A stretch of 64,000 bases of DNA from Promethearchaeota archaeon (GTDB lineage: Archaea; Asgardarchaeota; Lokiarchaeia; Sigyniarchaeales; SOKP01): the NCBI GenBank assembly GCA_018238625.1, contig JABCSY010000009.1:1-64000 (forward strand). The letters run 5' to 3'. A program made the translations under genes and the position numbers. The notes under the pieces are model-generated. The model was not told the DNA's origin and did not search any database. It saw only the letters and a list, made by a program, of their open reading frames with translations. Shown piece after piece: positions 34,977 through 50,368 of the stretch. Numbering within the stretch: position 1 is the first letter of the stretch; the number at the start of each line of letters is the position of its first letter.

Positions 34977-37900
34977 TTAAAGCTTAATTTCACAAGACTC
35001 CGAATCACAGAACTTACTTCCTATTGCTCTGTCTTTTGTTTTATCCAAATCTAAAGGTTTAAGTTTTGAAACCATTTCCTCGAATTTTTCTTTTGTGATC
35101 GATTCGTACGGAGCTTGTTTGTAGCCGTGCTCTTTAATCGGTAAAAAACTTACGCTTTTTAGCTTATCTTCAAAGCACTCCAGCACGTGTTTAATTTGGT
35201 TTGCCTCGTCTTGCTTAAACGTAATCGTAATTGATACTTGGTTGTCGGACCAATATTTTTGATAGTCTGCAGCATTTTCCGCTTGTTCCCATATAGAAAC
35301 GTCGTCCTTGGAACGTTCAAATAATTGTTCGTGGACGGGAAATTCGACTACAATAGTATTAGGAGAATATGAATCGTCCTCTATGTAATAACCGGCGTTT
35401 TTAATGGGGTCTATCAAATCAGAATTCTTCGAAATGCGAATTCTTCGGATATAATATTCGGAATGAGGATAGTGAATTCCTGGAGGGACTCCCGGAAGTA
35501 AGCTTACGGTTCCGCTCGGTTTAACCGTAGTAATTTTTATCGATTTTGGGATGCACAACCAATCGGAATAATCCTCGTCCAATTCCCGTATATATTTATA
35601 ACCTTTATCGCACCAGTCTAACATATTCCTTCTTCCATGTTTCACAAAAGCTTCAATTATTCCCGTTTGTGAAATTCCCATTCGCCTGTTCTTAAGCATT
35701 ACTGCGTTAGTTTCTTGCCAATGCGTATTTACGAGCGTTACAGATTTAGCGTACAAATAAGCAGACTTTAAAGTGTCTTGATACTCTTCGTATGACTCGT
35801 GCCTTGAAGGGAACGTCTCTACAAGGCAGCAAAGTTCGAATGATTCCAACGTCTGTTCTCCGCAATTTGCAGTAAATATCATTTCTAACTTAGGCCTTCC
35901 TGATTTAGTTTCTTTTTCAGTTAGAATAATTCCATAATTATGGAAATCATCGACTGTACCATTATAAACTGTATTTTTCCCAATATAATTGACTGATACA
36001 ACTTTATGGTTATAAGATAGACCACAGTCTTTTAGTTTTAGTGCCATTTGTTGCCTATACTGATGTTTACTTAATGAGCGAACAGAGATTGTTTGACAAA
36101 CATATTTCTCAGTGATCGTGTCCATTACATATTGATAGCCTTTATAAATTCCAGCAGTTCTAAAATCGTTGATTCCATTTTCTTTAATAAATTTTAAGAA
36201 ATCAGCTAATTGAGGAACCTCATTTTGTTCATAAATATATTGAGCAAATAATTGACATAATTTTCTTTTAGCTTCTTGTTGATTTCTTTTTCCTTTATTT
36301 TTCATCGCTGCGCCTGCCTTAATTGCAGCTATTTTATTAGCACATTTATGTGAACAATAAGCTTGCTCTCGTCTGCCATATTTTACTTTAAATTCCTTTC
36401 TACATAATGCACAATATTTTACAACAAACATACCATCTTCAAAAATTAACTCAAGATCGCTTTCTTTCAGTAAATTAATATATCTTTTATATTCTCTCAT
36501 TAGAGCTGGGTTATCTAAATGTTCAAATCCAGATTCAATATTCGCTCTTTTAATGAAATTCAATAATGAACCACGAAATTCAGTAAAGGAAGATATTAAT
36601 CCTATTTCTTTTGAATGTTCTTTCCAAGCGGGAATAGTTAATGGTTCATTTGTTCTTTTGATATAGGAAATCATCTCATTATAAATTTGCTCATTAGAGA
36701 TTCCAGAATATCTTGGGTTTTTGGTACCGGAAGTAGCTTTCGACATCCTTTGATGGTACTGTTGTTTTTCTTCAGGAGTAGCATGGGGATACCAAATACG
36801 CATAGGATTTTTATCACCTGATATATCATGTAAAGAATCATGATCATCCTTTAGCATAAGTTCTAAATTATCTTTTCTATTATTCAAACCATCCTTGTCT
36901 TTATGATGGAGAACATACCCACTGGGAATTTTACATTTATTAAGTTGTTCATAAATAAATGTATGTTCAAAAGTGTTTTTCTTTCCATTATTTAACATCC
37001 AATAAATTGATCTTTTCTTCTTTTCTTCTCCCATTATCTCTGCCCAAGTTGTTTGCCATTTTGGTGTTATCATTAGACTATCTCCACTTCTTAATTCTCT
37101 AGCTTCTAAAGATGTATTATTCCTTAAAATAAACTTATGATTTTCTGTGCATTTTATTATACTATCATCATCCAATTTTACTTCATATATTTTCTCATTA
37201 TAACCCGTAATTCTTGGATTTCTCATCATTCTTATTACTGTTAATCCTTTATCATTTTTACAGTACACGGGAATATCGTTTCCTTCTTCTGCCAATTGTT
37301 TTATTGCCACAGCATTCCTACCGTCAGCGACAGCAATAAGTGTATCACCTGTTATACAAGGATTTACGCCCGCAGCTTTCTTATCTTTATGGTCTGGTGG
37401 GTTTCCCATTCGAGAATACGCCTTTGCGTTTTCTATCCAAAGAATTCCAGGTTCCCCATTCACAGCAATCTGATCTGCTATGAAAGAATAGTCTAATCCT
37501 TTTTTTGCAAATATACTGTTATTGCTCGCCCATCTATGCGAATAAAGTTTTTCTTTGTCTTGTTTGCTCTGTATAAACTCTAGATCGGTGGCTTCTCCTA
37601 ATGCGATCTCAGCACTGCGGCGAACATTGCCGGCTACGACGCATTTTCCAATGAGATTCATAATATCCAAAATGTCAAGTGACCTTATTGGTAGACCTAT
37701 TCGAGCTTCTAAGATTTTTTGAATATTCATCAACATATCAATTAAAGGTTCTGGGCCGCTAGCTATTCCTCCAAAGCCTCTAATTGGCTGACCTGCGGGC
37801 CTAATTAAGCTAAAATCAAACTTTGGCATTCGCTTACCTAAAAAATACGCTTCTATAACAAGTTTAAGGGCTTCCACCCAACCTTCTCTGCTATCTGGTA

Positions 37901-38705
37901 ATTGAAAAGTAAAATGATCTTCTATAGGTTTTTGAATTGTAATTTTACCTGCTCCTTTTGTATCAAAACCTACTCCTACGCCCAACATTAGCGCATCCAT
38001 CACGAATTGGAACGCTTTCGAGTATTTTAGGTCGATATCGTCGGTAGAGGCAAAGCCGCAGTTATTAAGCGACATAGAACCGTGACGCGCGATAAACTCG
38101 GTTCCCATCATCCAAAGTCCCCTTCCTGGCGGTAAGAACTTAAAATTCCAGATTTTATTATACATTATTTGAGCAGATTTCTGAGCTTTAGCATCGGTCC
38201 AAGGTAAACTTAACTTGATACAGTGCTCTTTTTGGATTGAATAACAACCTTCGACAACTCTTCTGATCGTTTCCCAGAACTCTTCCTTTCTGTTCTCTCC
38301 TTCTACAACTCTGGCGTAGGTTCTTTTGTACGTGATGTAGCCTAAAGGGCCCCAATCAGGTTGGTTCCCTGTAAATTTAGCAAGAAAACTATTGTCTAAC
38401 GTGAAAGATATATTTTCCAAATTAATAGCTCGAGCGAATAGATTTCGGTATTTATTTAAACCTCGTTGGGTTAGCTCGACACATACTAATTCTCTAACGT
38501 GATTAGTAGTGATCTCATCAACTCCTAGACCAATAATTATTCGTAAAACATCTTCCGTAACTTTTTCCGCAATGTGTATATCAAGACCAGTTTCTTTGTT
38601 TAATACTTTTGCTATGCTAGTATCTTCGAACTTTTTTTTTTCACCTTTCGAGTTTATTACATATTTTGGATACAAATCTTTTAATGAAAACGAGTTGTCA
38701 GTCAT
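34977..38705 (-). CDS. nrdJ: Class II (B12-dependent) ribonucleoside-triphosphate reductase with N-terminal ATP cone and an intein
   Basis: YKRTYAR, PPGRGLW, NNCGF, VVAGNVRRSA, NP|CGE, TTVKPSGTVS, C-terminal FCDSESC. Confidence 0.93.
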   Translation of the reverse strand: MTDNSFSLKDLYPKYVINSKGEKKKFEDTSIAKVLNKETGLDIHIAEKVTEDVLRIIIGLGVDEITTNHVRELVCVELTQRGLNKYRNLFARAINLENISFTLDNSFLAKFTGNQPDWGPLGYITYKRTYARVVEGENRKEEFWETIRRVVEGCYSIQKEHCIKLSLPWTDAKAQKSAQIMYNKIWNFKFLPPGRGLWMMGTEFIARHGSMSLNNCGFASTDDIDLKYSKAFQFVMDALMLGVGVGFDTKGAGKITIQKPIEDHFTFQLPDSREGWVEALKLVIEAYFLGKRMPKFDFSLIRPAGQPIRGFGGIASGPEPLIDMLMNIQKILEARIGLPIRSLDILDIMNLIGKCVVAGNVRRSAEIALGEATDLEFIQSKQDKEKLYSHRWASNNSIFAKKGLDYSFIADQIAVNGEPGILWIENAKAYSRMGNPPDHKDKKAAGVNPCITGDTLIAVADGRNAVAIKQLAEEGNDIPVYCKNDKGLTVIRMMRNPRITGYNEKIYEVKLDDDSIIKCTENHKFILRNNTSLEARELRSGDSLMITPKWQTTWAEIMGEEKKKRSIYWMLNNGKKNTFEHTFIYEQLNKCKIPSGYVLHHKDKDGLNNRKDNLELMLKDDHDSLHDISGDKNPMRIWYPHATPEEKQQYHQRMSKATSGTKNPRYSGISNEQIYNEMISYIKRTNEPLTIPAWKEHSKEIGLISSFTEFRGSLLNFIKRANIESGFEHLDNPALMREYKRYINLLKESDLELIFEDGMFVVKYCALCRKEFKVKYGRREQAYCSHKCANKIAAIKAGAAMKNKGKRNQQEAKRKLCQLFAQYIYEQNEVPQLADFLKFIKENGINDFRTAGIYKGYQYVMDTITEKYVCQTISVRSLSKHQYRQQMALKLKDCGLSYNHKVVSVNYIGKNTVYNGTVDDFHNYGIILTEKETKSGRPKLEMIFTANCGEQTLESFELCCLVETFPSRHESYEEYQDTLKSAYLYAKSVTLVNTHWQETNAVMLKNRRMGISQTGIIEAFVKHGRRNMLDWCDKGYKYIRELDEDYSDWLCIPKSIKITTVKPSGTVSLLPGVPPGIHYPHSEYYIRRIRISKNSDLIDPIKNAGYYIEDDSYSPNTIVVEFPVHEQLFERSKDDVSIWEQAENAADYQKYWSDNQVSITITFKQDEANQIKHVLECFEDKLKSVSFLPIKEHGYKQAPYESITKEKFEEMVSKLKPLDLDKTKDRAIGSKFCDSESCEIKL
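35865..37358 (-). mobile_element. Intein (498 aa) with HNH-type homing endonuclease, inserted before the catalytic Cys of NrdJ
   Basis: NP|CITGDTLIAVADG...KCTENHKF (blocks A, B); VYNGTVDDFHNY (block F); IFTAN|CGEQ (block G); HHKDKDGLNNRKDNL HNH motif. Confidence 0.92.
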
Positions 38706-39152: not shown

Positions 39153-40139
39153 ATGTTAGACGAAATTGAACCGCCTGAAATGAGTGACTCTGATGGTGAT
39201 GGTGATGGTGAAGTTGCTAAAGAAAAAATTCAACTCCAATTCCATTGGTATTTAAGTATCTTTTTTGTAATTTACTATAGTTCGTATGTAATACCGGGAA
39301 TTGTTTTTATGGAGTATGTTATAATAGTTTTTATCCCTCTCTTTTTAAGGGTAGATAGCCTATTTGTTGTCTTTACGAACCTTGATTCTTTACTGGCTTT
39401 TCTAGCCTTACCGTTAGTTCTTATAGTAAGTTATTTAATCCACTTATTTTTAGTAGGTTTGCTCTCGCGAATTATCTGGAGATATACTGAAAAAATTTCG
39501 CCAAGCAAAGATGGCGTTATTCCAAGAAACATCCCTTCTAAGACTGCTAATCTATACCATATTAGATCCTTTATGATTAAATACGGGAAGAACGCTTTCA
39601 TGAAAGGGATATTTCCGTGGTTAGCTAATTGGTTTTTCAACTTTGTAGGGACCAGCGTAATTGCAAAGGGTTCTACGCTCGAAGAATCAGTAGTTACGGA
39701 TAGAAATGTAAACGTCGGAAAAAACTGCTATATTGGCGTTAATTCAGCACTCTCGAGCCATTTTGTGGAGGGTATTTTCGGAAATATTGTGTACTTTGAA
39801 ATTAAGCTAGGAGAAAATGTTACTTTAGGGGGTTTTAATAACATTGCCCCTGGATGCGACCTAAGAGATAATTCGTATCTTTTGCCAATGGCTGCAGCAA
39901 CTAAGCACAATTTGCTAAAAGGAGATAACTACTACTTTGGTATACCTTTACGTAGAATATTCAAGAAGAAAGTTATGAATTACTTAAAGATTAGCGAGAA
40001 TAATTTAGTTCAAGCCGAGGAATTAAGAGATAAGCAAGAGAACGCAAAGTTAGAGAGGATAAAAAAGGAAGCAGAAAAAAATGAAAAAAAAAAACGTAAA
40101 AATCATAAAAAAAATAAAGGCGTGAGAGAAAATGGATGA
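39153..40139 (+). CDS. Membrane-bound left-handed beta-helix acyltransferase-like protein, module A (Pls C-domain-like)
   Basis: 2 TM helices, then hexapeptide repeats (IAKGST, VGKNCYIGVNS, LGENVTLG), SHFVEG, YFGIP. Confidence 0.8.
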   Translation: MLDEIEPPEMSDSDGDGDGEVAKEKIQLQFHWYLSIFFVIYYSSYVIPGIVFMEYVIIVFIPLFLRVDSLFVVFTNLDSLLAFLALPLVLIVSYLIHLFLVGLLSRIIWRYTEKISPSKDGVIPRNIPSKTANLYHIRSFMIKYGKNAFMKGIFPWLANWFFNFVGTSVIAKGSTLEESVVTDRNVNVGKNCYIGVNSALSSHFVEGIFGNIVYFEIKLGENVTLGGFNNIAPGCDLRDNSYLLPMAAATKHNLLKGDNYYFGIPLRRIFKKKVMNYLKISENNLVQAEELRDKQENAKLERIKKEAEKNEKKKRKNHKKNKGVRENG

Positions 40140-41043
40140 AACTATAGAAGAAGAAAATAAAGGATCTGAAAGCATAGATGATGCCTTTGACTTTAACATT
40201 GATTTTACTACGAGTTCTGCTATAAACAGAGTTAGTCTTAAGTTTTTAATAGTATATATACCAATTTTTTGGTTTTCAGGTATGATTGTAGCAACTTTTT
40301 GGTACGGCTACACTGTAGGTACTGAACCATGGATAATTAAATTGCTATTTTTACCAATTTTATTGTTAGCATTTATGTTTCTTTTCATTATTAGTTGCTT
40401 CCTTTTTAGTAAGCTTCTGTTAATTTTAATAAATTTAATGCACCTTCCCAAAGAGGGAATATTCCGAACTGAGAAGGGAGACACGGATTTTGAATTTTGG
40501 AGGTTAAGAACCGAAATAAAAAAGATTGTTTTGTGGCTAATAAGAAACTGGCCTCTACCTTGGATAGACGTGTTAGCATTTCGCTGGTTTGGGGTAAGTA
40601 TGGATTTCTCGAGCCACTTGAACGATGCCTGGTGCGACGCTGAATTTATTAAGTTTGGAAACAACGTAACAATCGGCCAAGGGGCCGTTTTAATGAGCTC
40701 AATGGTGGTAGGTAATTATCTAATCATTAAAAGAATAACATTCGAAGATTTCGCTCTTGTTGGAGGTCAGAGCACGATCGCCCCTGGAACTCACTTTGGA
40801 AAAGACACTGTTTTAGGTGCGGTATCAGTCACCACTCTTAATCAAAAACTAGAAGACGGGTGGATTTATTCAGGTATTCCTGCTAGAAAATTAAAGCCTA
40901 ATCAATACGCCGAAGCGAGAAGAGATATTATAAGCAAGGTAGATGTTGACGAAGAAGAAAAAGTTGATGTAGAGCACGAAGTTAATATCGACGAAGATAA
41001 AAAGCATTTAATTAAAGGAAATAAAGGAGGCGTTAAAAAGTGA
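40132..41043 (+). CDS. Membrane-bound left-handed beta-helix protein, module B
   Basis: 2 TM, H.PKEGIF, FGNNVTIGQGA, IAPGTHFGKDTVLGA, WIYSGIPA; overlaps the upstream gene by 8 bp. Confidence 0.8.
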   Translation: MDETIEEENKGSESIDDAFDFNIDFTTSSAINRVSLKFLIVYIPIFWFSGMIVATFWYGYTVGTEPWIIKLLFLPILLLAFMFLFIISCFLFSKLLLILINLMHLPKEGIFRTEKGDTDFEFWRLRTEIKKIVLWLIRNWPLPWIDVLAFRWFGVSMDFSSHLNDAWCDAEFIKFGNNVTIGQGAVLMSSMVVGNYLIIKRITFEDFALVGGQSTIAPGTHFGKDTVLGAVSVTTLNQKLEDGWIYSGIPARKLKPNQYAEARRDIISKVDVDEEEKVDVEHEVNIDEDKKHLIKGNKGGVKK

Positions 41044-41966
41044 GCGTTCCGAATTCGATGCGCGTTGGTCCTTTTTGTGCAACCGTACTGGTTAAGAAAA
41101 AGTATTTGCTTATGCATATTTTTTTAATATGGATTAGTCTACTTCCTGCGATATTAGAAATATGGTGGTATTGGCAGATGTTGTGGTACGATTTAAGACC
41201 ACTTCATTTCTACGTGTTTTTGCCTCTTTATTTTATTGTAATGTACATCACAACCGTGTTCGCTGCGATATTCTTTGCTAAAATTTTATTAATTATGGTT
41301 AATGTTTTTCACAAACCAAGAGAAGGCGTTTTTCTAAGGGATCCCGCAGACAGGGATTATAGATATTGGAGTCTTAGAAATACAATTAAAAAGTGGCCAA
41401 CCTGGCTCGCGCATAAATTTCCCTTTCCATTTTTAGACAATATTTGTTTCAAGGTGTTTGGAGTAAAAACAAAGTTTTCTAACTCTCTCTTTGAAGGTTG
41501 GGTGGATACTGAATATATAAAGTTCGGAAAGAATGTAGTTGTGGGTCAGGGAGCTATAATTCAATCTTCGGCTATTATAGGAAACTTTTTAATCATTAAA
41601 AAAACTATCATTGAAGAAAACGTTAGAATAGGCGCACACGTAATAATTATGCCAGGCACCCATATAGGAAAAAACTGCATTTTAAACACTTGGTCGTCTA
41701 CAATGGTAGGTCAAGAACTAGAAGAAGGCTGGGTGTACAATGGGAGCCCTGCGAAAAAATTCAAGAAAAATAGATTTTTCGAAGACATTCCAATCGAAAA
41801 ACTTACTAAAACCGTTGGAGACCTTGACGGATTATTAAAGAAATACGATGAACAATACACAAAGCGGCATGTAAAAAAGAAGGTACCTCTCAAAGAAAGA
41901 AGGATCCATATAAGAAAAGAAAAATCAGAAGAAAAACCCGAAGAAAAAACTGAAAAAAAGGATTAA
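41040..41966 (+). CDS. Membrane-bound left-handed beta-helix protein, module C
   Basis: 2 TM, HKPREGVF, FGKNVVVGQGA, IEENVRIGAH.IIMPGTHIGKN, WVYNGSPA; 4-bp GTGA overlap. Confidence 0.8.
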   Translation: MSVPNSMRVGPFCATVLVKKKYLLMHIFLIWISLLPAILEIWWYWQMLWYDLRPLHFYVFLPLYFIVMYITTVFAAIFFAKILLIMVNVFHKPREGVFLRDPADRDYRYWSLRNTIKKWPTWLAHKFPFPFLDNICFKVFGVKTKFSNSLFEGWVDTEYIKFGKNVVVGQGAIIQSSAIIGNFLIIKKTIIEENVRIGAHVIIMPGTHIGKNCILNTWSSTMVGQELEEGWVYNGSPAKKFKKNRFFEDIPIEKLTKTVGDLDGLLKKYDEQYTKRHVKKKVPLKERRIHIRKEKSEEKPEEKTEKKD

Positions 41967-41968
41967 GC

Positions 41969-42754
41969 ATGAGAATTGGTTACGTTCAAACCTCTCCAAC
42001 CTTTGGTAAAAAAACTCAAAACTTTGAACAAGTAAAGAACTTATTAAGCGATACCAAAGCAGAATTAATTGTATTACCAGAACTTTTCGCAACCGGTTAT
42101 ACATTCATCTCTAAAAAAGAAGCTGAATCTTTATCGGAAGATATTAACGGGCAAACCGCTCAATTTCTAAAGAAATTATCAAAAGATACAGGAGGAGTTG
42201 TAATTGGAGGGTTTATTGAAAAAGATGGCGATGCAATATTCAATTCTGCGATGATAGTTTCAAAAAATGAAGTAATCGGAAGGTATAGGAAAATTCATCT
42301 ATATTATAAAGAACGCCTATGGTTTTCTCCTGGAAACAAGCCTTTACGAATTTACGAAGTAAACAACGTGAAAATCGGAATAATGATTTGTTTCGATTGG
42401 TTTTATCCGGAGACAATCCGTACGCTCGCGCTTCTTGGAGCTGATATCATTGCACATCCCGCTAACTTAGTGCTTCCGTATTGCCAAAAAGCTATGACTA
42501 CTCATTGTTTGGTAAATCACGTTTTTGGTGTAACTTCTAACAGAATAGGCAACGAAGTAAGGGGCGAAGACGATTTTAAGTTTACGGGGGGAAGTCAAAT
42601 CACGTCTTATAACGGAGATGTACTCTCGTCCGCACCAACGGATAAAGTTTACATTAAATTTATAGAAATTGACGTAAATCACGCAAGAGATAAAAAGCTT
42701 AATAGATATAACGATTTACTAAATGATAGAAGACCAGAGTTCTATCTTCTATAA
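41969..42754 (+). CDS. Carbon-nitrogen hydrolase (nitrilase/amidase family)
   Basis: LPELF, YRKIHL, ICFDW catalytic E-K-C triad. Confidence 0.92.
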   Translation: MRIGYVQTSPTFGKKTQNFEQVKNLLSDTKAELIVLPELFATGYTFISKKEAESLSEDINGQTAQFLKKLSKDTGGVVIGGFIEKDGDAIFNSAMIVSKNEVIGRYRKIHLYYKERLWFSPGNKPLRIYEVNNVKIGIMICFDWFYPETIRTLALLGADIIAHPANLVLPYCQKAMTTHCLVNHVFGVTSNRIGNEVRGEDDFKFTGGSQITSYNGDVLSSAPTDKVYIKFIEIDVNHARDKKLNRYNDLLNDRRPEFYLL

Positions 42755-42781
42755 TCATTTTATTATAAAAAGATATAAACC

Positions 42782-43789
42782 ATGAAAGCTGCTGTATTTG
42801 ATGGGCACAAAATTGCCATTAAAGAAGTGCCTAAACCTGAACCTGAAGATTCTCAAGTTTTAATTCAAGTAAAAGCTGCGGGAATTTGTGGCACGGATAT
42901 AGCAATAGTAAGAGGTTATCTTCCAACTCCCTCTCCACTCATATTAGGTCACGAATTTGCTGGTGAAATTGTAGAAGTAGGGAAAAAAGTGGAATCCACT
43001 TGGCTAGGTAAACGAGTGACTTCAGAAATTAATAGTAACATTGATTTTGAATGTTATTATTGTAAACGAGAGATGTTTACACAATGTATTTCCAGAAAAG
43101 CTTTAGGGATCGATATCAATGGAGCGTTCGCAGAGTTCATTGCCGTCGAGTCTTATTTGATACACGAATTACCAAAAAAGATTTCCTACGAAGAAGCTAC
43201 CTTTATCGAACCGTTAGCCGCGGCTTATCAAACGTTTGAAATGATGCCTATAGAAAAAGACGATAAAATTATAGCAATTTTTGGTCTTGGAAAGTTAGGC
43301 TTATTGCTAACTCAAGTTGCGTTATTAAAAAGATTGAAATTAATTGTAATTGACGGTTCAGATAAAAAACTTGCCTTAGCCAAAAAGTTTGGCGCACATT
43401 ATTCAATTAATCGTTTGAATGTAAATGATATACCAACTGAAATTAGAAAATTAACAAAAAACATTGGAGCTGATATCGTTGTTGATACCACAGGAAACCC
43501 AGATGCCCTAAAAGATGTTGTTTCTTCGTGTAAAACGCGTGGAAAAGTCCACATAAAAAGTACTCACGGGTTAGAAACTCCAATTAATTTTACCGATATT
43601 GTGGTCAGGGAAATTACTATTTACAGCAGTAGATGTGGTCCCTTTGACAAAGCTATTGAAGGATTAAGTTCAGGAAAAGTTAAGGTTAAAGAATTAATTT
43701 CCAAAGAGTATACCTTTAATGATATCCAAGAAGCTTTTATTTCTTACGAGAAAAACCGAGATTACATAAAAACACTTATCTTATTTTAG
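42782..43789 (+). CDS. Zn-dependent alcohol dehydrogenase (MDR family)
   Basis: GICGTD, GHE, EPLAA, GLGKLG, SRCGPF. Confidence 0.9.
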   Translation: MKAAVFDGHKIAIKEVPKPEPEDSQVLIQVKAAGICGTDIAIVRGYLPTPSPLILGHEFAGEIVEVGKKVESTWLGKRVTSEINSNIDFECYYCKREMFTQCISRKALGIDINGAFAEFIAVESYLIHELPKKISYEEATFIEPLAAAYQTFEMMPIEKDDKIIAIFGLGKLGLLLTQVALLKRLKLIVIDGSDKKLALAKKFGAHYSINRLNVNDIPTEIRKLTKNIGADIVVDTTGNPDALKDVVSSCKTRGKVHIKSTHGLETPINFTDIVVREITIYSSRCGPFDKAIEGLSSGKVKVKELISKEYTFNDIQEAFISYEKNRDYIKTLILF

Positions 43790-44174
43790 AAAAAATTACT
43801 TGGTTCTCCAAAAAACTTACAATCTTTTTGCATGTTCTTCGAACTGTATTCTTATTTGGATAAAAAAGTTCTGGTCTTGGACATTCGCTATCAAAAACAC
43901 ACGAGTTCTTATCTAAATCGTAAATTAAAGGATAAAATCGGCATCCTTGGGGTCTTATCTCGTAAATATTACAGAGTTTTGTTTCGCTATCGAAAAAGAA
44001 GCAATGTCCGTTAATGTTTTTTAATTGATAAAAGTTATCTTCAGTTTTTTGTACAAAATCTGTTTTTCTCAAGATTGTTTTATGGCTACTAACGATAACT
44101 TCGATATCTTGGTCAGAGAGAATCATCTCTGTCTCGATACAGCAATTTCCACAATCTTCACATCTATTCTTCAT
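43776..44174 (-). CDS. YkgJ-family cysteine cluster protein
   Basis: CEDCGNCC, C.FF....LCNIYEIRPQGCRFYP. Confidence 0.88.
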   Translation of the reverse strand: MKNRCEDCGNCCIETEMILSDQDIEVIVSSHKTILRKTDFVQKTEDNFYQLKNINGHCFFFDSETKLCNIYEIRPQGCRFYPLIYDLDKNSCVFDSECPRPELFYPNKNTVRRTCKKIVSFLENQVIFSKIR

Positions 44175-44340
44175 GTTATTTTTTCTATTAGTTTGTGTGA
44201 TTTCAAGGTAAGCTTTTAATCGTTTTGGTAGTTTTGTTCTTAATGTAACTTTAAAAAGTAAAAAACATTCCTATTTTACTAATATAAATAATAAAAGGAA
44301 TTTATCTATTATCTTCTCAAAGTTTTCCACATGCTAAAAA

Positions 44341-46179
44341 ATGGTTGAAGAAACAAAATCAGAATCATTGGATGGATCAAAGGATTCTCAAGAAGCCGTC
44401 ATTAAGGAACCCGTGAAAATACAATTTAAAATCTACATAATGACATTTGCTGTTATTTACTATTCCTCTTGGATAATCCCTGGTTTTATCTTAATAACAT
44501 ATTTCTTTTTTATATTTCGAAAATACTTTTTAGACACCAGCAATTTTGTTATGCTTTTTACAGAGCCGTATCCCCTCCTCTCATTGATTTTTATGCCACT
44601 TTTAATGATAGTTTCTTATCTTATACACCTATTATTAATTGGATTAGCAACAAAATTGTGTTGGAGTATTACTGAAAAAATGTCCCCTTCAAAAAATGGT
44701 ATAATCCCAAGAAACATACAAAGTAAGACGGCAAATTATTATCATATGAGAAGTTTCATGATAAAATATGGAAAAAATGCATTTACCAAAGGAATGTTCC
44801 CGTGGCTTTCCAATTGGTTTTTTAACTTTGTAGGAGCAAGCAAAATTGGAAAAGGGTCCACAATTGAAGAATCTGTTGGATCAGATAAATTTATTGATGT
44901 TGGTAAAAATTGTTATATCGGTGTAAACTCTACGTTAGCATCTCATTTAGTGCAGGGTATCTTCGGGAACATATCCTACTTCAAAGTAAAGCTGAAAGAC
45001 AATGTTACCCTCGCTGCGATGAATCAAATAGGTCCAGGGTCCGAAATTGGCAAGGATTCCTTTTTATTACCCTTAGCTACATGTTTGAAACATAGCATAT
45101 TAAAAGGGGGGAAATATTATGTAGGAATCCCACTAAAAAAAATTTTTAAAAAAGAAATTATGGATTACTTAGGTTTAACACCTGAAGATTTAGAGCGAAA
45201 CGATTCTCTTAGTGAATTTCTTACAAAATATAAAAAAGAAAAAACTAAAGAGAAAATTAAAGAAGAACTTGAAGAAGATTTTACTGTTAAGCAAGAAAAG
45301 GAAGAATTAGTTGATGTAGAGAGTATTACAAAAGAAGATCTAGCTTTGGACTTTACTACCAGTAGTGCTATCAGTAGAATAAATGTTAAATTTTTGGCAG
45401 TATATATTCCCATTTTCTGGTTAAGTGGTTTTTTAGTTTCGATTTATGTGTATGAATATACACGAGATCCTGGGCTAACAACGATTTTGTTTTTACCAAT
45501 CGCAATCTTTTCTATGTGGTACATATTCATCTTTGGAGTGTTATTTTTTAGTAAATTGCTTTTAGTTCTTGTAAATTTAATGCATAAACCCCGAGAAGGT
45601 ATTTTTATCGCTGAAATTGGAGATAAAGACTACGAGTTTTGGATGTTAAGAACAGAGCTAAAAAAGATCAGCCTCTGGCTAATTAGAAATTCTCCATTTT
45701 CCTGGGTAGATGTAATAGCGTTTAAAATGTTTGGAATAAATATGGATTTTTCGAGTCATTTAAACGATGCATGGTGCGATGCCGAATTTGTAAACTTTGG
45801 TCGAAATAATTTAATAGGACAAGGAGCCACAATAATGTCCTCAATGGTAGTAGGCAAATACTTAATAATTAAAAAGGTGATGTTTGACGATAATGTTATG
45901 GTTGGCGGCCACACCACTATCGCGCCTGGCACGATAATGGGACATGATTCGGTTATAGGTGCTATCAGTTCAACTACATATAATCAAATTCTAGAATCAA
46001 ATTGGATATATTTTGGAATTCCCGGAATTAAACTAAAAGAAAATAAGTATGCCCAAGAAAGAAGAGATATTATAATAAAACGCGATGTTGACGAGCAAGT
46101 GAAAGTTAAGATGACTCACGAAGTTAATATTGATGAGGATAAAAAGAATTTAATAAAAACAGAAAAAAATAAAGGGTAG
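44341..46179 (+). CDS. Fusion of module A and module B membrane left-handed beta-helix proteins (paralog of 39153-41043)
   Basis: N-half matches 39153 (SPSKNGIIPRNIQSKTANYYH.RSFMIKYGKNAF); C-half matches 40132 (DFTTSSAI.R, MDFSSHLNDAWCDAEF, HEVNIDEDKK). Confidence 0.85.
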   Translation: MVEETKSESLDGSKDSQEAVIKEPVKIQFKIYIMTFAVIYYSSWIIPGFILITYFFFIFRKYFLDTSNFVMLFTEPYPLLSLIFMPLLMIVSYLIHLLLIGLATKLCWSITEKMSPSKNGIIPRNIQSKTANYYHMRSFMIKYGKNAFTKGMFPWLSNWFFNFVGASKIGKGSTIEESVGSDKFIDVGKNCYIGVNSTLASHLVQGIFGNISYFKVKLKDNVTLAAMNQIGPGSEIGKDSFLLPLATCLKHSILKGGKYYVGIPLKKIFKKEIMDYLGLTPEDLERNDSLSEFLTKYKKEKTKEKIKEELEEDFTVKQEKEELVDVESITKEDLALDFTTSSAISRINVKFLAVYIPIFWLSGFLVSIYVYEYTRDPGLTTILFLPIAIFSMWYIFIFGVLFFSKLLLVLVNLMHKPREGIFIAEIGDKDYEFWMLRTELKKISLWLIRNSPFSWVDVIAFKMFGINMDFSSHLNDAWCDAEFVNFGRNNLIGQGATIMSSMVVGKYLIIKKVMFDDNVMVGGHTTIAPGTIMGHDSVIGAISSTTYNQILESNWIYFGIPGIKLKENKYAQERRDIIIKRDVDEQVKVKMTHEVNIDEDKKNLIKTEKNKG

Positions 46180-46181
46180 AA

Positions 46182-47078
46182 ATGTCAATTCCTAATACTA
46201 TGCGCATAGGTCCATTTATACCAACAGTTTTAGTAAAGAAAAAATATTTACTTTTCTATCTAATTATCGTTTGGTTCAGTTTTATCCCTGTTTTTTTAGA
46301 ATTTTGGGTTTATTGGCAATTTTTATGGAATTATAGTAGACCGATTCACTTTTATACGTTCCTACCTCTTGTAATTCTACCAATGTATATTACCCTTGTA
46401 TTTAGTGCAATTTTTATTGCCAAAATCTTATTTATAGCCGTCAATGTCATTCACAAGCCACAAGTTGGCGTATTTTTAAGACATCCAAGCGATAAGGATT
46501 ATCGGTATTGGTGTATTAGGAATATAATAAAAAGATGGCCATTTTGGATAAGTCATCGATTTCCTTTTCCTTTCTTAGACAACATCTGCTTTAAAGTGTT
46601 CGGTGTAAAGACAAAATTTTCAAACTCTTTATTTGAGGGTTGGGTGGATACTGAATTTATATCGTTCGGAAAAAACGTTGTTGTTGGTCAAGGGGCAATT
46701 GTACAATCTAGTGTAATTATCGGTAATCTCCTCATAATTAAGAGAACTGTTATTGAAGACGATGTCAGAATTGGTTCTCATGCAATAGTCATGCCTGGCA
46801 CTTATATCGGAAGAAAAAGCGTTTTAGCTGCTAATTCAATAACAACGGTGGATCAAAAACTCGAGGATGGTTATATCTATGTAGGAATTCCCGCAAAAAA
46901 ATTTAAAAGAAATTATTTCTTTGAGGATGGTTTACAAGAGAAAATAGGACAAGTTGAAGATGTAGAAGCTTTAAGGGCAAAATACGAAAAAATTTATATT
47001 AAACGCTACGACAAAATATCTCATAAAGAGCGTAAAGAATTGAAAAAAGAACAAAAAGAAGAAGAAAAGAAAAGATGA
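46182..47078 (+). CDS. Module C membrane left-handed beta-helix protein (paralog of 41040-41966)
   Basis: FPFPFLDNICFKVFGVKTKFSNSLFEGWVDTE is identical to the 41040 protein. Confidence 0.85.
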   Translation: MSIPNTMRIGPFIPTVLVKKKYLLFYLIIVWFSFIPVFLEFWVYWQFLWNYSRPIHFYTFLPLVILPMYITLVFSAIFIAKILFIAVNVIHKPQVGVFLRHPSDKDYRYWCIRNIIKRWPFWISHRFPFPFLDNICFKVFGVKTKFSNSLFEGWVDTEFISFGKNVVVGQGAIVQSSVIIGNLLIIKRTVIEDDVRIGSHAIVMPGTYIGRKSVLAANSITTVDQKLEDGYIYVGIPAKKFKRNYFFEDGLQEKIGQVEDVEALRAKYEKIYIKRYDKISHKERKELKKEQKEEEKKR

Positions 47079-47200: not shown

Positions 47201-48061
47201 TTATGATCTTATTAATTTAATTGAAGTTAAAATAGTCCAAGCTGATATATTAATTGTTAATATCCACTCAATTAAAGGGGTTAAGGTAAATAGTAATATT
47301 AACAATTCTAAAGCCGTTGTGAAACCAATAATGACATGATATTTTTTATATTCACCGCTCTTTAACATTAAATAACTATAAAGGCAAATGCATATAACAG
47401 TCCCTATAAAAGCATTAAAAGCAACAAATGCGTGAAACATTCGAAATATTTCTAAGTAATCGGGGTCAGGAAGAATTCCAACTAAAGCTATGCTTGCCGA
47501 GCCACTTATTGCGATAATGGTCGCTGATCTACGGATAAAATCATTAATATTAACAAGGCTTTTTTCCAGAAATAATATAAAAGGAATGCCCAAACTACCT
47601 CCTGTGACAAAGGCTATGCTAAATAACGTTTTTGCAATTCCATTTCCTAGCGAGCTTACGGTATTTACGAGAGGGTTGTAATTTGGAGTTAATAATGCAG
47701 CCATAACGATAAAAACTATGGTTATTAGAGTACCTAACAATCCAAAATAGCATTCTAATTTAGAAAGGTGAACATCGACAATGTGGATGAGTCTTTCTTG
47801 AGTAAGCTGCTCGCTCTTTAAATCTTTTAGAGTCGCTGATTTTTCTAATGTTACTGAGAGCTTATTAACAATCCCCTTTACACCATATACCGTTTTAGTT
47901 ATCGTTTCAGCGCGTGCTTTTTGCCATAACGCAGAAATAGTTCCTTCTAATATCACTCTGCCATTTACAACTGTCGTTTTAATATTGTATACTTTTAGAA
48001 ACTTGTCCTTAAAAAATTTTGAAACTACTCTTTTCTTAATTTCCTCATCAGAGCTTAGCAT
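47201..48061 (-). CDS. BON domain fused to a DUF998-like membrane domain
   Basis: SDEEIK..V......I.TTVVNG.VILEG...KARAE.I...V.GVK.IVNKL (BON); YNPLVNTVSSLG...H.FVA (DUF998-like). Start placed at MLSSD after a GAGG motif. Confidence 0.75.
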   Translation of the reverse strand: MLSSDEEIKKRVVSKFFKDKFLKVYNIKTTVVNGRVILEGTISALWQKARAETITKTVYGVKGIVNKLSVTLEKSATLKDLKSEQLTQERLIHIVDVHLSKLECYFGLLGTLITIVFIVMAALLTPNYNPLVNTVSSLGNGIAKTLFSIAFVTGGSLGIPFILFLEKSLVNINDFIRRSATIIAISGSASIALVGILPDPDYLEIFRMFHAFVAFNAFIGTVICICLYSYLMLKSGEYKKYHVIIGFTTALELLILLFTLTPLIEWILTINISAWTILTSIKLIRS

Positions 48062-48455
48062 AATTAATCCCTCATTTAGAATAATTTCTCCTAATTTAAA
48101 TCTATACATTATTTAATAAAAATCTAATGGCTGAATTAAATACAATTTGAAATTGTTGTTCATAAAACGGTAATAAAGATGTTTTGTAAATCCATACAAA
48201 TATAAAACTCTTTAAAACCAGAATATATACCTAACATTGGAGTTCTTACATCTGACGCCCCAATAATTTCTGCATCGTCAACGACGAAGTTAATGTCTCT
48301 TGGAAAATTAATCTCCCCATAATAGGAATTACATCAATTAAAAATAATTAATAGTGATGTTTGATATCAAAATATAAAAATTACTTCCTTATATATTAAA
48401 CTAAAGCAGTGATTAGTAAAAACGTTATTATAAACAAAATATGGAAAAATAAAAT

Positions 48456-49574
48456 ATGGAAAAAATTGAAAATCTAGATGGGAGTTATGCTATTTGGCGT
48501 GAATCTAATGGTCAAAAATATTTAGAGGTTTACGCGTTTAATCATTACGATTTAGGTTTTCTTGAAGGTAAATTTCTCTCGAGAAAAATTCTTAATTTGA
48601 AAGAACTTATGGAAGTTCTTGCACTTAGATATATTCCTAAAAGGTATACTTATCAAAAATTTATTAGTATGGCTCAAGAATATGAAAAATTTATTCCAAG
48701 GTATTTACAACAGGAATTGCACGGGATGGCTGATGCTTTAGAAAATATTTCTTACGGAGATATTCTTTTACAAAATTGTTTTTTAGACATCCTTTATGGT
48801 CAATTAATTCCAATGGATAATTACGACTTAGCTCTTCATTCTTATGACTTTGGATGCACATCTTTTGGCGTAATAAATCAAAATTCAACATTAACAGGAC
48901 AAAACTTTGATTTAGCAGTGATTTTTAAGCCTACTTTAACATTTACATTGATTAAAATGCCTAAAAAACCTGATATCTTTTCATTAAGAATTGGAGCTCT
49001 ATTAAGTTTGCCAGTTGGAAGGAATAGTCATGGCGTAGCTTTATCTGTAACTGTTGTTAAAAACCATATGAAGGGAGCTATATCAATTCCATGTTCCATT
49101 AAAGCAAGAATGGCATTTGAAACGAGTAAAAATGCCGAGACATTGTATAATTTCATGATTAGTACACCTAGCCCAACTAGCGGCACTCTTCTCATAGCAG
49201 ATGAATCAAAAATTATAGCATTAGAAATTTTACCGTCTAAATATAAACGAGAAGATGTTACAAATACAATAGTAAAATCAAATACTTTTACTTCAAATTC
49301 TTTGCAAAAGTATCTTATTAAACCAAAATATTCAAAAAAAAGACAAAGATATGCAGAGGAGCAATTAAATAAAGTTTATAATAATAATAATAAAGGATTT
49401 ACGGATGATGGGTTATTAAATTTATTGGCTGATGATCCTATTATATGTCGTATGAAATACCGTAGATCCAAAACTATAGCTTTCAATACAAAATTATATT
49501 TTGGATTAGGAAATCCGAATCAAAACAAACCCGGGATAATTCCTTTTAATCAAATAAATGAACCATTAAAATAA
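48456..49574 (+). CDS. C45-family Ntn-hydrolase (acyl-CoA:6-APA acyltransferase-like peptidase)
   Basis: ELHGMAD, G|CTSFG autoprocessing Cys, GQNFD, G.NSHGV. Confidence 0.82.
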   Translation: MEKIENLDGSYAIWRESNGQKYLEVYAFNHYDLGFLEGKFLSRKILNLKELMEVLALRYIPKRYTYQKFISMAQEYEKFIPRYLQQELHGMADALENISYGDILLQNCFLDILYGQLIPMDNYDLALHSYDFGCTSFGVINQNSTLTGQNFDLAVIFKPTLTFTLIKMPKKPDIFSLRIGALLSLPVGRNSHGVALSVTVVKNHMKGAISIPCSIKARMAFETSKNAETLYNFMISTPSPTSGTLLIADESKIIALEILPSKYKREDVTNTIVKSNTFTSNSLQKYLIKPKYSKKRQRYAEEQLNKVYNNNNKGFTDDGLLNLLADDPIICRMKYRRSKTIAFNTKLYFGLGNPNQNKPGIIPFNQINEPLK

Positions 49575-49600: not shown

Positions 49601-50368
49601 TCATTTTCCTAATTCTTCTCTCTTAATTAGAACTTCTTTAATATAATAGCAGTTTTCTCGATAGGGGCAAATTTGACACCCCCAATCATATTCACAGTCA
49701 ATCCTTTTTTTCCAATCTTCGATTTTGGCTTTCCATTTCTTGGCAAATTGTGCCGTTATTTCGGAAGAGATTTCTCTGAAGTGTCCTATTGAATCTGTGT
49801 ATGTGTTGATAAAGAAAATTTCCATAGCTTTGATCAAATTGCCAAATTTTTGGTGATAAAGATGAAAGATTGCATTTCCTAAAAACTCAAATGAGAAATT
49901 GCGTTGTAATGCATCGGAACTTATTCTACACCAAAATCTCCGAGGAATTGTTCTTATTAGAAAACCCTCAATGCTATTGGATATAAAAGATAATTGCCTT
50001 AATTCATCGTTTTCTATTTCGCTTTTATCGACTCCAATTAAAATGAACAATCCAAAATCGATAGAGGATTCCTTTATTGTTTTAATTTCTTGACCTAATA
50101 GAGTTATATTTCCGTCATGAAGGGATTCTAATTCCTGAACCGGAAAAACCAGTAAAAAAGATTTTTTATTTACGCCCCCTAATTCTAATCCGGTTTCTTC
50201 TTGAAGAATAACTTCTTTAAAATGATCTAGCTTAACTCCAATATCAGATTTACCAAAGAAAATGTTATAGTCGGGAATTTTCTGATAAGTGATTAGATTT
50301 TTTCCAATTTCGTATTCTTTGTTGAAAAAGTCCCTAAGTCTTTGTATCAACCGTTGATTTTGCATCAA
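49601..50368 (-). CDS. Stand-alone short CdhC/acetyl-CoA synthase beta-like domain protein with C-terminal Cys cluster
   Basis: ELGG, DGNITLLG, EGF.IR.....WCRIS, F.F..LG; C-terminal DC....CQIC....C. Confidence 0.65.
   Translation of the reverse strand: MMQNQRLIQRLRDFFNKEYEIGKNLITYQKIPDYNIFFGKSDIGVKLDHFKEVILQEETGLELGGVNKKSFLLVFPVQELESLHDGNITLLGQEIKTIKESSIDFGLFILIGVDKSEIENDELRQLSFISNSIEGFLIRTIPRRFWCRISSDALQRNFSFEFLGNAIFHLYHQKFGNLIKAMEIFFINTYTDSIGHFREISSEITAQFAKKWKAKIEDWKKRIDCEYDWGCQICPYRENCYYIKEVLIKREELGK

Follow-up and report, generated by a model that had tools for sequence, protein, structure and literature searches.

What does an archaeal membrane complex do if its parts are related to the terminal, polymer-forming domain of Pls/PosA-type nonribosomal peptide synthetases (NRPS), which make homopoly(amino acid)s such as poly-lysine, and none of the other domains of these enzymes is encoded beside it? 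This question is raised by five genes at positions 39153-47078 of a 64,000-nucleotide stretch of contig JABCSY010000009.1 (hereafter the window) from the Promethearchaeota archaeon assembly GCA_018238625.1. Their products comprise six modules of three types, A, B and C, each joining a transmembrane (TM) hairpin to a left-handed beta-helix (LbH). One set consists of A1, B1 and C1, and the other of the A-B fusion AB2 and of C2 (Table 1). The B and C modules are homologous to the repeat unit of Pls/PosA along their full length, beyond a generic LbH likeness, and the A-B-C complex probably carries out an acyl transfer of an as yet undescribed kind at the cell membrane.

Module plan and kinship with the Pls/PosA terminal domain

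All modules follow a common plan of two TM helices, a beta-strand, two helices, an LbH of about five turns and a terminal Y-x-G-x-P. Two hydrophobic peaks per module were detected. An alignment of 11 modules of this genome displayed a G, an R, a P-G, the Y-x-G-x-P and a Pro in the second TM helix (TM2) that were invariant or near-invariant. The AlphaFold model of C2, built from a 46-row alignment (mean pLDDT 77.8), contains helices at 20-48 and 55-90, a strand at 96-99, helices at 105-125 and 132-139, and beta-helix strands at 150-243 (about five turns). The two sets are paralogous. The N-terminal half of AB2 and A1 shared 53.6% identity over 293 aa, the C-terminal half of AB2 and B1 61.4% over 293 aa, and C2 and C1 65.2%, while B and C modules were about 40% identical to each other and A modules about 22-26% identical to B or C, with E of 1e-8 to 1e-16 (all BLASTP). 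The first-pass annotation of this DNA had described five genes and six modules of one plan in two A-B-C sets, and the open reading frames (ORFs), their paralogy, the alignment and the C2 model all agree with that description. A terminal motif is likewise present in all six window modules, in the form Y-x-G-x-P; the spacing proposed at first pass, [WY]..G.P, fits only the two A-type modules.

The Hexapep profile of Pfam (PF00132, gathering cut-off 27) recognised C1, AB2 and C2 above its cut-off, and A1 (25.2 bits) and B1 (19.6 bits) below it. A Foldseek search with the C2 model gave 142 matches at E<=1e-3, and all 41 listed were LbH proteins or complexes with an LbH subunit. The closest solved folds of the LbH part among the matches listed were CoA-dependent galactoside/maltose acetyltransferases and AntD. 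No whole-module match to the C2 model was present among those listed, the best rows aligning 91-103 columns that cover the LbH only. Database labels on the module proteins read 'hypothetical', 'acetyltransferase' or 'acyltransferase'. Summed over the six window modules, K and R residues numbered 14 in the N-terminal flanks, 6 in the loops between the first and second TM helix and 27 after TM2; because of the positive-inside rule, the N terminus and the LbH domain are predicted to be cytoplasmic.

TIGR02353, the NCBIfam model of the Pls/PosA terminal domain, was the top NCBIfam match for B1 (39.1 bits), C1 (47.1 bits) and C2 (39.2 bits) and the second for AB2 (50.0 bits), over the beta-helix part only, while A1 gave no match at E<=1. 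Ten matches were found genome-wide, none of them over the cut-off of 423.1 bits. The family named by the first-pass annotation is therefore the best match for three of the proteins, though at scores far below its cut-off. Weak matches to TIGR02353 were also obtained in 13 of 14 control genomes, and a match to this model alone is therefore no proof of kinship.

The kinship was instead traced with profiles of whole modules. A profile of 11 modules was compared with 1.84 billion representative proteins and gave 11352 matches at E<=1e-3. Among the best 150, the archaeal family was followed by five long NRPS proteins (P0231, P0234, P0236, P0244 and P0259; E 2e-33 to 3e-29), each with three matched stretches. 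The best stretch of P0231 (E 2.3e-33) spanned profile positions 19-272 of 290, that is, the TM hairpin, the linker and the helix. All five long proteins matched TIGR02353, P0231 (471 bits) and P0259 (460 bits) being over the 423-bit cut-off, and all five contained adenylation-domain matches. One of them, P0244 (1696 aa), carries its triple-module domain (323-1021) N-terminal to the adenylation domain (1116-1551).

The reciprocal comparison used a hidden Markov model (HMM) of the 15 modules of these five NRPS proteins, run on the 5519 ORFs of this genome. The B- and C-type modules scored 54-89 bits each over positions ~18-256 of 260, TM hairpin included; the values were 65.6 bits for B1 (positions 27-253), 67.2 bits for C1 (25-246) and 88.6 bits for C2 (28-246). 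Seven ordinary LbH proteins of the genome, serving as an internal control, matched only positions ~142-247, at no more than 40 bits per stretch. The A-type modules scored 25.5-40.7 bits, and A1 aligned with positions 19-250 despite its weak score. Families of the GAT/MAT/WcaF type (NF007076, NF007499 and NF007797) gave at most 33.4 bits with the window proteins, against cut-offs of 183-347.

Motifs common to the modules and Pls are spread over the entire unit and include the TM2 Pro, P-x-x-[EQ]-G-x-[FYH] after TM2, and a hairpin in the helix. A model of P0259 made by the same method as that of C2 (mean pLDDT 68.8, rising to 80-93 within the helix parts; pTM 0.70) showed the order helix-helix-strand-helix-helix-LbH three times, with the hairpin after the second beta-helix turn. 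The element order of both models agrees with the AlphaFold description of PosA given in the accessible part of its report (PMC10522769). A solved structure of the Pls terminal domain was not among the 60 listed of 194 PDB matches to P0259, all of which lay on the adenylation and thiolation (T) parts. Taken together, the forward profile, the reciprocal HMM, the shared motifs and the same element order substantiate the proposed kinship with Pls beyond generic O-acetyltransferases, weakly so for the A type.

The window polypeptides contain one or two repeat units, compared with three in a Pls chain. A single C-A-B chain occurs naturally elsewhere (P0121, 797 aa). Fused relatives longer than 1072 aa were not detected at E<=1e-3 in a word-based search, which is weak evidence, and the exhaustive profile search did find the Pls proteins.

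The remaining parts of an NRPS were searched for in the whole genome. AMP-binding domains gave 15 matches, none on the contig of the window, and TIGR01733 gave 21 matches, none over its cut-off (best 189 bits vs 317). PP-binding domains and phosphopantetheinyl transferases (PPTase) gave no match in the genome, which is estimated to be 97.9% complete; among the 14 control genomes, the same searches were positive in 11 for PP-binding domains and in 10 for PPTase. No adenylating gene was found in the window or in the conserved locus. With no PP-binding domain, no PPTase and no NRPS-grade adenylation domain, there are therefore no visible parts for Pls-type carrier-domain chemistry. The detachment from adenylation and thiolation domains proposed at first pass thus holds genome-wide, and it is shown for this genome that the archaeal lineage never had, or has lost, both.

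Conservation and differentiation of the three units

A scan of species-representative genomes with AB2 as query, which biases the result towards presence of AB2, yielded 73 loci, and all records were labelled Asgard archaea except one labelled Nanopelagicaceae. The usual layout was one to three A genes, B and C, then a nitrilase-like gene, a dehydrogenase gene, a CxxCxxCC gene on the opposite strand, and finally one to three A-B fusions with C. The 73 loci contained 104 A-B fusions, with C after 51 of them, C before four and no adjacent C for 49. Split sets were identified in 26 of the 73 loci and had one A in 17 sets, two in four and three in six. The two complete operons described at first pass are present here, but the locus is fluid and this is one of its states; elsewhere, one to three A genes or one to three A-B fusions accompany a single C.

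At E<=1e-25 the family was detected in 77 of 77 genomes of the same class (68/68, 7/7, 1/1 and 1/1) and, outside the class, in 22 of 223 genomes, 17 of them in one family and mostly weak; these counts come from 300 other genomes sampled from the phylum. The A-B-C triplet had been expected to be conserved in related genomes, and 73 syntenic loci together with 77/77 class genomes exclude chance. A-B-C is a core multi-copy gene set of the class, not a sporadic biosynthetic cluster.

The exceptional record, L074 (DATKTW010000040.1, 13.4 kb), is filed as 'Candidatus Nanopelagicaceae bacterium' and carries a full Asgard-type locus, with the ribonucleotide reductase gene, three A, B, C, the nitrilase-like gene, the dehydrogenase and the CxxCxxCC gene, at 63-89% identity to the window proteins. 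It is probably a mis-binned Asgard contig. In-frame stops were seen in some A-B matches of relatives; in three of the loci, no frame extended for at least 150 aa on both sides of a stop, and the stops most likely reflect matches that read across a gene boundary.

No description of a split or stand-alone archaeal form was found in the literature searched, which covered few subscription journals and included the accessible parts of PMC10522769 and PMC8506220. The PosA survey, in the part of it available, restricted its sequence network to lengths of 1100-1800 aa (PMC10522769). The ESM Atlas, used for leads only, contains Asgard clusters with generic labels and bacterial single-module clusters (Myxococcota, Bdellovibrionota). 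Of the sequencing runs consulted for expression, three probably contain DNA of related strains, and an RNA run gave only two short contigs with loose ends.

The relationships among the units were analyzed in an unrooted maximum likelihood tree of 68 modules (quick IQ-TREE search, LG+C20, SH-aLRT support). All Asgard modules formed one clade (98), in which A (100) and B plus C (97) were separated. The Pls modules and those of two stand-alone proteins formed another clade (90), where the modules of position 2 (90) and of position 3 (85) grouped and position 1 was unresolved. Triples of the P0184 type made up the third clade (99); the modules of position 2 and those of position 3 fell into a clade each, and position 1 was again unresolved. 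A one-to-one orthology of A, B and C with the Pls units C1, C2 and C3 was considered and rejected, as type-specific HMMs had no position preference and the Asgard modules were one clade. For the same reason, the system is not a split copy of Pls, and the first-pass interpretation, otherwise supported, needs correction on this point.

As A, B and C form one clade apart from the Pls modules, their three-way differentiation is therefore independent of Pls. Judging from the tree, the three-unit asymmetry seems to have arisen three times, in Pls, in the P0184 type and in Asgard archaea, from a one-unit ancestor. Single-unit relatives are the lone module on contig C150 of this genome and the bacterial clusters mentioned above, again as leads only.

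Assembly, candidate histidine and proposed mechanism

The first-pass annotation had predicted a heterotrimer. A joint model of AB2 and C2, each represented by a 46-row alignment, gave ipSAE values of 0.83, 0.85 and 0.84, compared with 0.00 for the best of three controls with unrelated proteins. The runs agreed in at least 85% of contacts, and partner pLDDT was at least 80. In the calibration of the tool, 58 of 80 solved complexes but only 2 of 110 mismatched pairs attained this ipSAE mark. C2 contacts both halves of AB2 in the model, A (63-290) and B (329-563), via the TM helices and the beta-helix faces. Natural fusions point in the same direction: the strongly typed multi-module clusters were C-A (8), C-A-B (2) and A-B (2), so that 12/12 follow one cyclic order and none the order B-A, A-C or C-B, although these 12 represent only two or three independent fusion events. 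An A-B-C heterotrimer, whose stoichiometry we infer, is thus supported by the predicted AB2+C2 complex and by the fusion order.

The three module types differ in one residue of possible catalytic importance. When the modules were aligned jointly, 147/147 A, 0/133 B and 0/85 C modules had a His directly behind the second turn of the helix. The same column held a His at position 2 only in the bacterial P0184-type triples (4/4), and mostly at position 3 in the Pls clade (6/7, against 2/7 for position 1 and 1/7 for position 2). When a profile of 20 A modules was aligned with 1kqa_A, the galactoside acetyltransferase (GAT) of E. coli, this His fell on residue 115 and a Ser on Ser111 (E 1.4e-4, 24.2 bits). 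According to the accessible text of PMC12775004, His115 of GAT is catalytic and the exchange H115A costs about 90% of conversion. An assignment of catalytic residues from single-sequence PDB matches was discarded, the LpxD alignments of A1 being ambiguous in register, and the 20-module profile was used in its place. Within the complex model a loop of B (~499) faces C2, and a loop of C2 (173-179) faces A (192-196, 223); because of the symmetry with these two contacts, the His loop of A should face B. The candidate active site would then lie at the A/B interface, and A-B is the pair most often fused.

We propose that the five genes encode two paralogous, ring-shaped A-B-C heterotrimers. The TM hairpin of each subunit would contribute to a six-helix membrane bundle, and the cytoplasm-facing LbH of each would join a pseudo-threefold LbH trimer. 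Each ring would have one active site, supplied by the A subunit where it meets B, while B and C would serve as partners or scaffold. A, the most divergent module type, would probably be an exchangeable specificity subunit, because it is the one that is multiplied (one to three A genes or A-B fusions per single C). The donor would most likely be a CoA thioester, because the cell is without a phosphopantetheinyl carrier system; CoA, which seems to be the sole pantetheine-thioester carrier of the cell, would offer a pantetheine arm identical to that of the T domain in Pls. An acceptor situated at the membrane, or in transit across it, would take up the acyl group on an amine or hydroxyl. As a whole, an A-B-C ring on a six-helix bundle with one A-borne His site, a CoA-thioester donor and acyl transfer at the membrane appears to us a reasonably probable account of this locus.

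Several observations weigh against this account. The TIGR02353 scores are 39-50 bits where the cut-off is 423, with none for A1 and with the weak matches in 13/14 control genomes, and the A-type modules are also weak against the Pls-module HMM. The tree comes from a quick search and has long branches. The alignment with His115 is a weak profile match in repetitive sequence, in which the register can slip; the Pls clade is not clean, as a His also occurs at its positions 1 and 2; and the place of the His at the A/B interface was deduced by symmetry from a contact list, not from coordinates. The modelling controls were unrelated proteins, and LbH trimers abound among solved structures, so that the ipSAE pass may partly reflect likeness to these. 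Sets are not always three, given the 49/104 A-B fusions with no adjacent C and the loci of two modules (C93) and one module (C150) in this genome.

Part of the same evidence can be read as a carrier-free but true polymer synthase, which like Pls would add unit after unit to an isopeptide or another polyamide and feed it outwards through the six-helix bundle. Its substrates would be aminoacyl-CoA, aminoacyl-AMP from a stand-alone adenylating enzyme, or aminoacyl-tRNA. As far as the available text of PMC10522769 goes, the sole characterised relatives of the whole repeat unit are polymerases. The TM helices have conserved residues, including the shared TM2 Pro, unlike plain anchors; the genome encodes 15 AMP-binding enzymes, and a single His-bearing module per ring is likewise the prevailing pattern in the Pls clade. 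However, neither the window nor the conserved locus has an adenylating gene, carriers and PPTase had no matches in the genome, and the Asgard modules form their own clade apart from Pls. The family is moreover core in 77/77 class genomes, whereas Pls-type antimicrobial synthetases are patchy in distribution, in the accessible part of the PosA survey (PMC10522769). The literature searched gave no report of such a polymer from Asgard archaea, and we consider a polymer synthase unlikely.

The heterotrimer might also not be obligatory. Each product would then form its own membrane-anchored homotrimeric O- or N-acetyltransferase, and the clustering would result from tandem duplication. Classical LbH enzymes are homotrimers, and the single-module and two-module loci (C150 and C93) and the A-B fusions without adjacent C would fit. 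On the other hand, the A-B, C-A and C-A-B fusions join unlike modules in one cyclic order (12/12), C2 was modelled against both AB2 halves at high confidence, and each type is kept as a type across the class. The His was found in 0/218 B and C sequences, and a homotrimer of B or C would be without it entirely. Independent homotrimers are for these reasons quite unlikely. A structural or transport assembly without enzyme activity, that is, a degenerate, cytoplasmic LbH scaffold on a six-helix channel comparable to the gamma-carbonic-anhydrase-like (gamma-CA-like) subunits of mitochondrial complex I, which the fold search also gave (e.g. 8j9h_G1, 7ar9_z), would suit the two module types that have no candidate catalytic His, but is very unlikely in view of the A-type His invariant in 147/147, the Ser aligned with Ser111 of GAT, nearest solved folds that are active CoA-dependent transferases and characterised relatives that are enzymes.

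In a more far-reaching reading, Lokiarchaeia-type Asgard archaea would universally make an undescribed membrane or exported product by means of a carrier-free, split Pls relative. The product would be a polyamide or an acylated envelope or lipid component; a single A-borne His site at the A/B interface would do the chemistry, the A paralogues would set the product, and the six-helix bundle would be its conduit. With all of its parts taken jointly, this reading is unlikely. If it were true, its one-site logic would also explain the working of the Pls/PosA terminal domain.

Neighbouring genes and comparison with known systems

The nitrilase-like gene, the dehydrogenase and the CxxCxxCC gene separate A1-B1-C1 from AB2-C2 (Table 1). 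In the related loci, the dehydrogenase was present in 59/73, the CxxCxxCC gene in 66/73 and the nitrilase-like gene in 28/73, the last lying directly after C in 18 of the 26 loci with a split set. The nitrilase-like protein of the window also matched NF040852 (280.9 bits), under the cut-off of 500. All three proteins, the dehydrogenase, the nitrilase-like amidase and the CxxCxxCC protein, probably belong to the same pathway as A-B-C.

Table 1. Module genes and the genes between them in the window, and module loci on other contigs of the same genome
Feature	Location	Strand	Remarks
A1, A-type module, 328 aa	39153..40139	+	2 TM + linker + LbH; invariant His is H203
B1, B-type module, 303 aa	40132..41043	+	8-base overlap with A1
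C1, C-type module, 308 aa, GTG start	41040..41966	+	4-base overlap with B1
Nitrilase-superfamily (CN hydrolase) gene	41969..42754	+	PF00795 133.5 bits; start 3 bases past C1
Zn-dependent medium-chain dehydrogenase, 335 aa	42782..43789	+	IolM-like 174.7 bits, Tdh-like 171 bits, both under cut-offs
CxxCxxCC small metal-binding protein	43776..44174	-	PF03692 56.2 bits
AB2, natural fusion of A-type and B-type module, 612 aa	44341..46179	+	Invariant His H202 in A half
C2, C-type module, 298 aa	46182..47078	+	2 bases after AB2
C-A fusion then B-like gene	contig C73, 35495-37940		Same genome
Pair of divergent modules	contig C93, 11447-13066	-	Same genome; 532-aa metallophosphoesterase downstream in same direction
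Lone divergent module	contig C150, 48525-49349		Same genome; just downstream of MFS transporter

Six more modules are encoded outside the window, giving 12 modules in total. Their neighbours on contigs C73, C93 and C150 include an acyl-CoA dehydrogenase, an MFS transporter, an ADP-forming CoA-ligase-like gene, a GDPD and a metallophosphoesterase, and no partner gene recurred among the module neighbours on these three contigs. About 4 kb from the C93 pair, a small GTPase of the Gtr1/RagA family (PF04670, 81.9 bits), a eukaryote-like signature protein, is encoded at L091:2113-3042 (-).

Other genes flank the locus in the window. Adjoining it at 34977-38705 (-) is a B12-dependent ribonucleotide reductase of 1242 aa, which contains an intein that includes an HNH endonuclease (Intein_splicing, 458-924; HNH_3, 592-621). 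Its orthologues measure 744-751 aa in most related loci, and the copy in L085 is likewise of 1242 aa. Directly past C2, at 47201-48109 (-), lies a gene for a 302-aa protein with a BON domain fused to a DUF998 membrane domain; this protein was found in 12/73 related loci and its adjacency is not constant. A C45-family autoproteolytic acyltransferase/hydrolase is encoded at 48456-49574 (+) (118.5 bits, over the cut-off of 85). The gene at 49601-50368 (-) encodes a 255-aa protein with likeness to part of the acetyl-CoA synthase beta subunit CdhC (~50 bits), which recurs near the locus in 16/73 related loci.

The locus is of interest as a natural Pls-type terminal domain in three separately encoded subunits, one of which is marked as likely catalytic, and it shows that such a domain can exist without adenylation and carrier domains. 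The literature consulted offers no settled mechanism for the Pls/PosA terminal domain; the dissected version opens to experiment both the purpose of the membrane helices and the question of which unit among the three is the catalytic one. With regard to Asgard archaea, the archaeal lineage nearest to eukaryotes, the locus is a sign of undescribed membrane chemistry. In evolutionary terms, three lineages appear to have independently made an asymmetric three-unit ring from a one-unit membrane LbH protein.

Among enzymes with solved folds, LacA/GAT, Maa and AntD, which are soluble, homotrimeric and CoA-dependent, gave the best LbH matches among those listed. The LbH part superposed on 3nz2_J at 1.4 A over 92 columns (29% identity), and 1kru_A was matched at E 6e-6. 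GAT further shares the A-type His at His115 and a Ser at Ser111, by a weak profile match. However, these enzymes are without TM hairpin or linker helices and have three equal active sites, whereas two of the three Asgard subunit types are without the His; only ~91-103 of the 298 residues of C2 align with GAT-type enzymes. In the PDB, the best sequence match to the A type is LpxD (4e75_A), found with the A profile at E 7e-7. LpxD and LpxA, acyltransferases of lipid A synthesis, act on a lipid precursor at the membrane surface. Both are LbH enzymes that use a pantetheine-thioester donor, but they are soluble homotrimers dependent on acyl-carrier protein (acyl-ACP), their NCBIfam scores with the modules are far under the cut-offs, and no ACP match was found in this genome.

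The bacterial stand-alone proteins of the P0184 family (~650-700 aa) and the fusion protein P0211 also have three units of two TM helices and an LbH without adenylation or T domains, and a His at the catalytic column in one unit only (position 2, 4/4). P0211 (960 aa) has a short-chain dehydrogenase fused before the triple module and likewise no adenylation domain; this oxidoreductase fusion parallels the conserved dehydrogenase neighbour of the Asgard locus. The P0184 family differs in having its three units in one chain and in forming a separate clade with its own triplication (SH-aLRT 99). It is uncharacterised and small: the search gave 25 proteins at E<=1e-5, of which one bears the label Elusimicrobia.

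The Pls/PosA terminal domain shares with the Asgard modules the TM hairpin with the TM2 Pro, the strand, the two helices, the LbH of about five turns with its hairpin, and the ending W/Y-x-G-x-P-A. Three units per assembly, with the candidate His mainly in one, are a further common trait (for PosA, see also PMC10522769). In contrast, the Asgard units are split over two or three polypeptides without adenylation or T domains, they have differentiated three ways independently, and the set belongs to the genomic core of an archaeal class while Pls is patchy. The known relative of the system is the Pls/PosA terminal domain, and what is new here is a split form that falls below the cut-off of this family and departs from its one-chain architecture and its attachment to adenylation and T domains.

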